Shown: positions 33,335-34,834 of the stretch, piece after piece
How the letters are laid out: every line of letters begins with the position of its first letter
Position numbering within the stretch: position 1 is the stretch's first letter
NCBI RefSeq assembly: GCF_003334305.1
Contig: NZ_QOWS01000011.1
DNA from: Escherichia coli
GTDB taxonomy: Bacteria; Pseudomonadota; Gammaproteobacteria; Enterobacterales; Enterobacteriaceae
Strand: one strand, 5' to 3'
DNA length: 64,000 nt
Position numbers and translations under genes: made by a program
Notes under the pieces: model-generated
The model's database searches: none
What the model saw: only the letters and a program-made list of their open reading frames with translations
Told to the model about the DNA's origin: nothing

Positions 33335-34597
33335 CTATGGGATAAACTTATTTTTACCAATTGTATAAGGCGGTGCATAAGATTCTCGGCATGCTTCCAG
33401 ATAATCCGACCACCACTGCATCATCGCTTTGCGGGCTTCCAGGTGCTCTGCCTTATGAATATAAGCCATGCGCACGGTATTGCGCTCCTGATGACTCATC
33501 TGGCGTTCTACTGCGTCCTTTGCCCATAAACCCGATTCCATCAGCGCACTGCATGCCATTGCCCGGAAGCCGTGACCGCAGATATCCTTTTTCGTGTCGT
33601 AACCCATCACCCGCAGTGCCTTATTGACCGTGTTTTCACACATTGGCTTATACGGGTTATGGTCGCCGGGGAAGATCAGTTCATTATTACCGGTGATATC
33701 CTTAATCTGTTTCAGAATGGCGATGGACTGTTCTGAGAGGGGGACGATATGCGGCATTCGCATTTTTGCCCCGCGGCCGGAATAATGCACGCCAATAATG
33801 GGTTCTCGCGTCGCGGGTATCGTCCAGACTCGGTTTGTGAAATCAATCTCTGACCAGCGGGCGAAACGCAGTTCACTGGAGCGAATGAACACATGCAGCA
33901 TCAGCAGAACGGCATGCCGGGTCAGTTCACGGCCCTGATGATATGCCCCAATACGTTCAAGCAGTTCAGGCAGCCGCTCCAGCGGCAGGGCAGGATAGTG
34001 CCGTCTGACAGGAGGTGTGGTCACGCCGCCAAGGTTTGCTGCAGGGTTCGTATCGATTAACTCCTGATGGACCGCATGGCGTATTATGTTACTCAGGTGC
34101 TGCCGTGTGCGGGACGCAACCTCCAGCAGACCTTTTTCCTCGATCCCTTTCTGCAGGTCAATGAAATGACGGGGTTTAAGTTCTGATACAGGTAGGTTCC
34201 CGATGACCGGAAAGATGTGATTGTTCAGGCTGGCAAGCAGACGGTCGGCGGTGTTCTGCGACCATTTCCTGTTACTTTTATGCCACGCCAGCGCCACGTT
34301 TTTAAAAACTTTCTCCGGTGTTCGTGAGCCACGTACAGCAGCCCGCTGCTGTACCGGGTTGATATTCAGCGCCAGCATTTTACGGATACCTTCACGTTGC
34401 TGTCGCGCATCAGACAGGGAGATGGCTGGATAGGCACCCAGCGCAATGCGGGATTCTTTACCGCTAATACGGTATTTGAGATACCAGTGGCGGGAGCCAC
34501 CCGGCTTGACCCGCAGATACAGACCGTGAGAATCGGAGACTTTAAAGGGTTTATCAGAAGGCTTGAGGGTGCGGATTTTTGCGTCGGTAAGGGATAT
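33335..34597 (-). CDS. int: P4-family tyrosine integrase of the HPI; canonical start position carries ATA
   Basis: Exactly 420 codons from ATA (34597-34595) to the stop. The N-terminus reads (I)SLTDAKIRTLKPSDKPF... in frame with the 347-aa track ORF; catalytic box ...HGFRAMACS.... The first ATG in frame is at 34378. Confidence 0.85.
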   Translation of the reverse strand: MSLTDAKIRTLKPSDKPFKVSDSHGLYLRVKPGGSRHWYLKYRISGKESRIALGAYPAISLSDARQQREGIRKMLALNINPVQQRAAVRGSRTPEKVFKNVALAWHKSNRKWSQNTADRLLASLNNHIFPVIGNLPVSELKPRHFIDLQKGIEEKGLLEVASRTRQHLSNIIRHAVHQELIDTNPAANLGGVTTPPVRRHYPALPLERLPELLERIGAYHQGRELTRHAVLLMLHVFIRSSELRFARWSEIDFTNRVWTIPATREPIIGVHYSGRGAKMRMPHIVPLSEQSIAILKQIKDITGNNELIFPGDHNPYKPMCENTVNKALRVMGYDTKKDICGHGFRAMACSALMESGLWAKDAVERQMSHQERNTVRMAYIHKAEHLEARKAMMQWWSDYLEACRESYAPPYTIGKNKFIP

Positions 34598-34757
34598 ATG
34601 GGGGTCACTCCATTATCGAACTAACCTGACCCCAGATTTGACCACCAATTTTTCCCGATGCGTAGGGTAAAATCAAAATGCACCGAGAAGAGTTTTCACA
34701 CTAACCTGTTGAATCAACATCAGATAAAGATTCGCAAGGATGCAAGAAAACAGAAAA

Positions 34758-34774
34758 TTGGCTCCTCTGACTGG
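34758..34774. repeat. 17-bp att core at the tRNA-Asn 3' end (single copy)
   Basis: ttggctcctctgactgg overlaps the tRNA 3' end; no second copy found by eye between 3300 and 4320. Confidence 0.6.
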
Positions 34775-34834
34775 ACTCGAACCAGTGACATACGGATTAA
34801 CAGTCCGCCGTTCTACCGACTGAACTACAGAGGA
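34759..34834 (-). tRNA. asnT: tRNA-Asn (GUU)
   Basis: 76-nt minus-strand sequence reads TCCTCTGTAGTTCAGTCGGTAGAACGGCGGACTGTTAATCCGTATGTCACTGGTTCGAGTCCAGTCAGAGGAGCCA; the copy next to mtfA is asnT in K-12. Confidence 0.9.

Follow-up and report, generated by a model that had tools for sequence, protein, structure and literature searches.

An ATA codon at the integrase start of a truncated HPI in Escherichia coli most likely reflects neutral decay after immobilisation

[quoted passage not shown] The codon corresponds to a G to A change at 34595 and is evident from the sequence, from the comparison of alleles and from the start of the RefSeq CDS. Taken together, the data make it highly probable that int is the relic integrase of an immobilised HPI and that ATA arose by neutral decay after immobilisation and is not the cause of fixation. 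In the best reading, the change is a neutral step of pseudogenisation that is at most mildly advantageous. RefSeq already lists the ATA allele, which standard reference strains also carry, and that the HPI is fixed is textbook knowledge; a literature search on an ATA start in HPI int returned no relevant description, and in one preprint the 'highly variable intA' was left out of the analyses (10.1101/2025.09.17.676721).

To describe the start region, the minus strand reads TAA (34615-34613), TGG AGT GAC CCC CAT and ATA (34597-34595), followed by TCC CTT ACC GAC GCA AAA ATC CGC, and its translation runs *WSDPH, isoleucine at ATA and then SLTDAKIRTLKPSDKPF. The frame extends over 420 codons from ATA to the last sense codon and, including the TAG stop that ends at 33335, comprises 1263 nt. 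According to the program-made ORF list and the sequence, no in-frame ATG, GTG or TTG occurs between the TAA and codon 74, which is the first in-frame ATG (34376-34378, minus strand). This codon is preceded by a weak GAAGG 10 nt upstream, and the ORF list begins a 347-aa ORF at this position. The original prediction, that int has ATA where a start codon is expected and that 420 codons lead from there to the stop with no ATG, GTG or TTG after the upstream TAA, was thus borne out by the minus-strand sequence and the ORF list. Other starts were also considered. None of the five codons between TAA and ATA provides an upstream or near-cognate start, and an out-of-frame GTG at 34608, which opens an 80-aa ORF, was rejected as a rescue, as it directly abuts the GGAG described below and lies in another frame.

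The leader between the tRNA gene and int (34598-34758, minus strand) is 161 nt long and holds, in addition to the in-frame TAA, a Shine-Dalgarno-like GGAG at 34611-34608, 10 nt before ATA. The leader was identical among genomes with ATA and differed by 1-3 nt in genomes with ATG. It also contains a mini-ORF of three codons, ATG GAG TGA (34606-34614, minus strand), which overlaps both the in-frame TAA and the GGAG of int and is conserved in ATG alleles as well.

The gene (int/intB; 33335-34597, minus strand) encodes an HPI P4-type tyrosine integrase of 420 codons plus stop and is open throughout, as determined by translation, Pfam analysis and RefSeq (WP_024165620.1). Pfam identified Arm-DNA-bind_3 (PF13356) at residues 3-87 (E = 5.8e-24), Phage_int_M at residues 98-191 (E = 1.3e-22) and Phage_integrase at residues 224-384 (E = 1.6e-19). 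Hence, the arm-binding, core-binding and catalytic domains of a P4-type tyrosine integrase are all present, and the gene adjoins the att-bearing 3' end of a tRNA gene. The position of tRNA-Asn immediately upstream and of ybtS through fyuA downstream confirmed the earlier assignment of the gene as HPI integrase. An integrase of the lambda/P4 type without its arm-binding domain is incapable of arm-dependent recombination. In the window, the arm-type DNA-binding domain (PF13356) is encoded at 34337-34591 (minus strand) and would mostly be lost with a start at M74. The claim that a start at the ATG at 34378 removes about 74 residues including this domain held for most of the domain, while the number of residues is 73.

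Databases hold this one gene in two forms. Where a genome is identical to the window, the CDS annotated by RefSeq/PGAP is 1263 nt long, begins at ATA (WP_024165620.1), bears no pseudogene flag and gives a 420-aa product, whereas many GenBank submitters have annotated the 347-aa ORF from M74, a product which occurs on at least 1000 contigs. Neither the 420-aa nor the 347-aa record is evidence of mobility of the island.

With respect to transcription, a promoter scan yielded a sigma-70-like match upstream of asnT at 34881-34853. In ICEKp1/ICEEc1, read-through from the tRNA-asn promoter transcribes the integrated int, subject to attenuation by stem-loops in the 161-nt leader (PMC13023037). By analogy, int of the window is expected to be co-transcribed from the tRNA promoter. 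A pattern scan of the window leader detected no structured terminator or attenuator, and its fold was unexceptional (z = -0.55). In E. coli reporters, AUA, AUU, AUC and CUG initiate at about 1-2% of AUG (bioRxiv 10.1101/063800). Judging from the sequence, the remaining options for int are initiation at AUA or a start at M74 behind the weak GAAGG, the latter giving a product without most of Arm-DNA-bind_3. That these are the only options had been anticipated, and the ORF list, the sequence and the Pfam domains are in agreement with this. Either way, far less functional integrase must be made, at a level that we infer, and with an open frame and an intact GGAG, a trace of full-length Int may still be produced from ATA.

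The island is integrated at the tRNA-Asn gene asnT (34759-34834, minus strand), which was identified by ARAGORN and by the RefSeq annotation of an identical genome. A 17-bp att core, CCAGTCAGAGGAGCCAA, is located at 34758-34774 at the 3' end of tRNA-Asn, with int at a distance of 161 nt. No second 17-bp core was found in the 64-kb window with up to 3 mismatches allowed, so only attL is present. The yersiniabactin cargo (4312-33141) is intact according to the ORFs and the RefSeq annotation and consists of ybtS, ybtX, ybtQ, ybtP, ybtA, irp2, irp1, ybtU, ybtT, ybtE and fyuA; the annotation of the cargo and of the region downstream was taken from a genome with 3 differences to the window in 30,901 bases. 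The gene order at asnT, i.e., int, ybtS-X-Q-P, ybtA, irp2, irp1, ybtU-T-E and fyuA, is that of the fixed HPI. Next to fyuA follow a fused inverse-autotransporter fragment, an Ig-like pseudogene, a glycosyltransferase gene, shiA and amn, in this order, and between fyuA and shiA the annotation contains neither an AlpA/Hef-type directionality factor (excisionase) nor a transfer module. The window thus displays the right-border deletion of the fixed E. coli HPI, with one att core, no excisionase and no transfer genes, and has neither the pair of attL and attR nor the recombination directionality factor (Hef/AlpA family) of an excision-competent HPI or ICE.

The truncated right end (3300-4311) was delimited by alignment with ICE-type and fixed HPIs, by annotation and by the att search. 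In the alignment, homology to the ICE-type elements stops at about 3300-3310, inside an ORF at 2912-3718. In addition, a 222-bp deletion relative to ICE-type HPIs was found at window position 4018/4019, about 290 nt downstream of fyuA. Both this deletion and the right-end junction are common to the window, a Nissle-type island with ATA (L012) and two islands with ATG (L013 and L015). The 222-bp deletion is therefore a second shared deletion marking the fixed lineage, present in all four fixed HPIs examined. As ATG and ATA islands have one and the same junction, the truncation predates the ATA codon. The ORF at 2912-3718 (minus strand), to which RefSeq gives the name 'inverse autotransporter beta domain-containing protein', crosses the right-hand junction between HPI and chromosome at about 3300-3310. 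It looks like a chromosomal remnant fused to an island ORF, which in ICE-type HPIs is a 927-nt hypothetical gene. The Ig-like domain gene that follows is a frameshifted pseudogene.

These features agree with earlier descriptions from this species. Nearly all HPIs of E. coli are truncated and fixed, and all but one of the HPIs in the ECOR collection have a unique right-border deletion in common, have lost the direct repeat and are fixed (PMC2606025; PMC8209727). The window resembles the fixed HPI at asnT (Schubert et al., PMC2606025) in insertion site, in the order from int to fyuA, in the loss of the right repeat and in the chromosome junction, and no structural difference from it was found.

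For comparison with elements that retain mobility genes, E. coli and Raoultella elements were used. In Raoultella planticola, the same leader precedes the same gene, which starts with ATG. The HPI of E. coli EC31 is ICE-type, with an AlpA-family gene and a type IV secretion module after fyuA, and ATG is the first codon of its int; E. coli Ryan-0026 shares this arrangement and likewise has an ATG start. The AlpA-family excisionase gene is present at the ICE-type loci L014 and L016. When one genome per species was scanned with an exact 23-nt pattern of the int 5' end, only Raoultella planticola was returned. In the proposed comparison of the int 5' end with other HPIs, the ICE-type elements of E. 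coli and Raoultella have ATG, and truncated islands carry either ATG or ATA. The int of the window differs from the Raoultella allele by 7 nt and from the EC31 allele by 10 nt. Compared to the ICE-type reference, it displays M1I at the start, five further amino-acid changes (L29R, E88V, L149Q, M172I and R271H) and one synonymous change. The integrases of ICE-type HPIs, i.e., ICEEc1 of ECOR31-like strains and ICEKp1 of Klebsiella, show few residue differences to that of the window and have the same leader and tRNA-asn context. ICE-type HPI elements are flanked by att repeats (PMC8209727; PMC2801613). They keep the ATG, the AlpA-family excisionase gene and the type IV secretion module, whereas the window has none of these.

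Damaged integrases also occur in other islands of this kind. In the HPI of Yersinia enterocolitica 1B, int contains a premature stop. Enterobacter hormaechei carries an intB in which bp 124-470 are deleted and a truncated intB2 (PMC2801613). These are likewise P4-type integrases of asn-tRNA islands with a small disabling lesion and intact cargo; in the window, the lesion is the loss of the start.

To determine how widespread the ATA codon is, a 461-nt query spanning the end of the tRNA gene, the leader and codons 1-99 was run against 5,426 complete E. coli genomes. Matches were obtained in 2,330 genomes, in 1,994 of them over at least 80% of the query length. Alleles were counted by 36-nt queries, in which the variable base lies inside every possible 28-nt megablast seed. 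The ATA version was present in 930 of the 5,426 genomes, always on the chromosome and in a single copy, and amounts to about 47% of the HPI-positive complete genomes (930 compared to about 1,994 with the int 5' end); the carriers include Nissle 1917 and UTI89. The ATG version was found in 1,287 genomes, a count that includes a paralogous asn-tRNA island integrase in strains such as UTI89. A sequencing error, which had been named as a possible objection, was ruled out, since the same base is present in 930 independent complete genomes. The ATA codon could mark one major lineage of the HPI, although no fewer than four int haplotypes carry it.

UTI89 and other B2 genomes possess a second, related asn-tRNA island integrase about 44 kb from the HPI int, at a position outside the window. 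In strains with ATA in the HPI int, 34 of 36 nt match around the intact ATG of this second gene, and in UTI89-like strains it is probably the integrase of the pks island.

The distribution of the ATA base among alleles is not that of a single event. At least four int haplotypes carry it. Seven derived sites, spread over the island, are common to the window-type and Nissle-type islands and, as judged from the sequences, suggest a shared ancestor that already had ATA; other sites of the island conflict with this grouping. The D5S haplotype (GAC to AGC) has ATG in 542 genomes and ATA in 9 (L004/L013 compared to L024), and int codons 1 and 5 accordingly display all four gametes. As the two sites are 10 nt apart, the start-codon base must have mutated at least twice, be it by a second loss or by a reversion. 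The number of haplotypes, the conflicting shared-derived sites and the four gametes led us to reject the idea that ATA arose once on a clean tree. A synonymous C>T change at position 369 is also recurrent and, as is the start-codon change, a G:C to A:T transition. Such transitions are the commonest class of spontaneous mutations in E. coli. We read the recurrence at both sites as recurrent mutation under relaxed constraint.

To estimate selection on int, twelve genes were extracted from four fixed islands; the alleles were chosen by BLAST ranking and are a non-random sample, and the estimate for int comprises 17 sites. In int, 3 synonymous and 14 non-synonymous segregating sites were counted, corresponding to a pN/pS of about 1.5. 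In the eleven ybt, irp and fyuA genes, there were 166 synonymous and 112 non-synonymous sites, with pN/pS values between 0.05 and 0.63 per gene. The difference between int and the yersiniabactin genes was significant (Fisher exact p = 0.0008). Hence, in this small sample, int has a ratio near 1, unlike its neighbours, as expected for relaxed constraint. When the divergent ICE-type allele at L016 was added, the pN/pS of int dropped to 0.25, as the extra differences were mostly synonymous. This is consistent with purifying selection having acted on int along the branch to the ICE-type allele and having been relaxed in the fixed islands, as far as can be judged from sequence comparison.

Besides the start loss, ten int alleles from fixed islands together displayed 21 missense changes and 1 nonsense change, compared to 4 synonymous changes. 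The ratio of 22:4 non-synonymous to synonymous changes is compatible with neutrality (one-sided P = 0.22 against the neutral expectation). Within the arm domain, 12 non-synonymous and 0 synonymous changes were found (P about 0.03, uncorrected). The missense changes include the radical substitutions L204P, L121R, G156D and R329W. The int of UTI89 (L018) equals the window allele with S21F and Q394* (CAG to TAG) in addition and is flagged by PGAP as a pseudogene with an internal stop. In nine of the ten sampled alleles the 420-codon frame is open, and with about 7 substitutions each, these alleles have accumulated too few changes for a chance stop to be expected; the open frame is thus of little weight in either direction. 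In the ATA haplotype WP_024175719.1, which is present in the E. coli strains 1002W03 (L022) and AHB24 (L023), the internal start has also changed from ATG to ATA (M74I), and neither the canonical nor the fallback start is left in these strains. An apparent enrichment of substitutions at the N-terminus was dropped, because the first alleles had been picked by identity over codons 1-99 only, which is a sampling bias.

Based on these findings, the following sequence of events is proposed. An ICE-type ancestor would have integrated at asnT, and a single deletion would then have taken the right end, together with attR, the gene for the AlpA/Hef-type excisionase and the genes for conjugation. From then on, site-specific excision would have been impossible, and vertical inheritance and homologous recombination of large fragments would have been the only ways for the island to spread. 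The integrase, left without a substrate, would have drifted neutrally, and within one large sub-lineage, to which the window belongs, ATG would have changed to ATA. An mRNA arising by read-through from asnT would be translated from AUA at about 1-2% of the AUG level or yield an M74 protein without the arm-binding domain. Neither product would have any recombination to carry out, as attR and the directionality factor are gone. We infer the order of these events on the tree. Under this proposal, int represents a clean and quantifiable case of neutral drift of an integrase once its island has lost the second attachment site.

An alternative that we regard as improbable is that ATA and the changes in the arm domain have been positively selected and represent a recurrent adaptive silencing of the integrase. 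Residual integrase made from the strong asnT transcript would, according to this explanation, destabilise the asn-tRNA cluster with the HPI, the pks island and free att sites, and a related HPI integrase has been inferred to excise neighbouring att-flanked islands in trans (PMC2801613). The four gametes formed with D5S, with their implication of at least two events at the start base, the excess of non-synonymous changes in the arm domain and the loss of the internal ATG in one ATA allele would also fit. However, over the whole gene the ratio of 22:4 is no different from the neutral expectation, and 369 C>T, the second site of recurrent change, likewise belongs to the G:C to A:T transitions, which fits mutation bias. 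In addition, ATG persists in over half of the fixed islands, 542 genomes of one haplotype among them, which argues against strong selection.

Even less probable is that the start-codon mutation itself decreases or abolishes excision and thereby contributed to the fixation of the island, as the original prediction had proposed. The loss of ATG must lower the output of Int sharply, a start at M74 would leave a protein without the arm-binding domain, and the ICE-type HPIs that retain mobility genes have kept their ATG. However, the right end is truncated in the same way in islands whose ATG is intact, and these likewise possess neither attR nor excisionase, and in the window no second att core is present, so that fixation is explained without ATA and is older than ATA. 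As attR and the excisionase had already been lost and the ATG islands are equally truncated, ATA is not needed to explain fixation. The claim that ATA helps to fix the island is thus not supported, given that attR, excisionase and transfer genes are missing and that the junction is common to ATG and ATA islands. The change is better seen as following from immobilisation or, at most, as incidental to it. A functionally proven int allele with ATA, which had been named as a finding that would speak against the claim, was not found. The literature credits the right-border deletion for the fixation of the HPI in E. coli (PMC2606025; PMC8209727), and this accepted explanation is unchanged by the ATA finding.

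A further comparison concerns the AUU start of infC and other near-cognate starts. As in these cases, the codon in the window is an AUN behind a Shine-Dalgarno sequence, and both NCBI table 11 and PGAP accept it as a start. The AUU of infC is conserved and regulatory; in contrast, the ATA in the window is derived and polymorphic, and its gene displays no purifying selection. That AUA is used deliberately to hold a still-useful integrase at a very low level, as in infC, is hardly credible: RefSeq annotates the full 420-aa product from ATA as a non-pseudogene, the Shine-Dalgarno sequence and frame are intact and integrases of integrated elements are normally held at a low level (PMC13023037), but the enzyme has no substrate with attR and RDF missing, pN/pS is about 1 or more, radical substitutions (L204P, L121R, G156D, R329W) and a nonsense allele occur within the clade, and the ICE-type relatives that retain mobility genes use ATG.

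Some minor observations were made on the islands and their surroundings. In E. coli CP131_Sichuan, a pig isolate (L019), an IS1 element is located about 90 nt past the int stop, where ybtS should begin; this strain has kept an int with ATA, and the position of the IS element suggests that the yersiniabactin cluster is partly or wholly disrupted or deleted. A frameshifted tyrosine recombinase pseudogene by tRNA-Ser, on the upstream side, is present at the HPI-positive loci L003, L004, L007, L010 and L021 and is missing from the window and from identical genomes, where its expected place would be to the right of 35915. Finally, eighteen derived sites are clustered within about 300 bp of irp2 (window about 20730-21030, at a distance of about 13.7-14.0 kb from the island's tRNA end). 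These sites are common to the islands of UPEC 26-1 (L012) and Ecol_656 (L013), not to that of the window, and the cluster looks like a small recombination patch.
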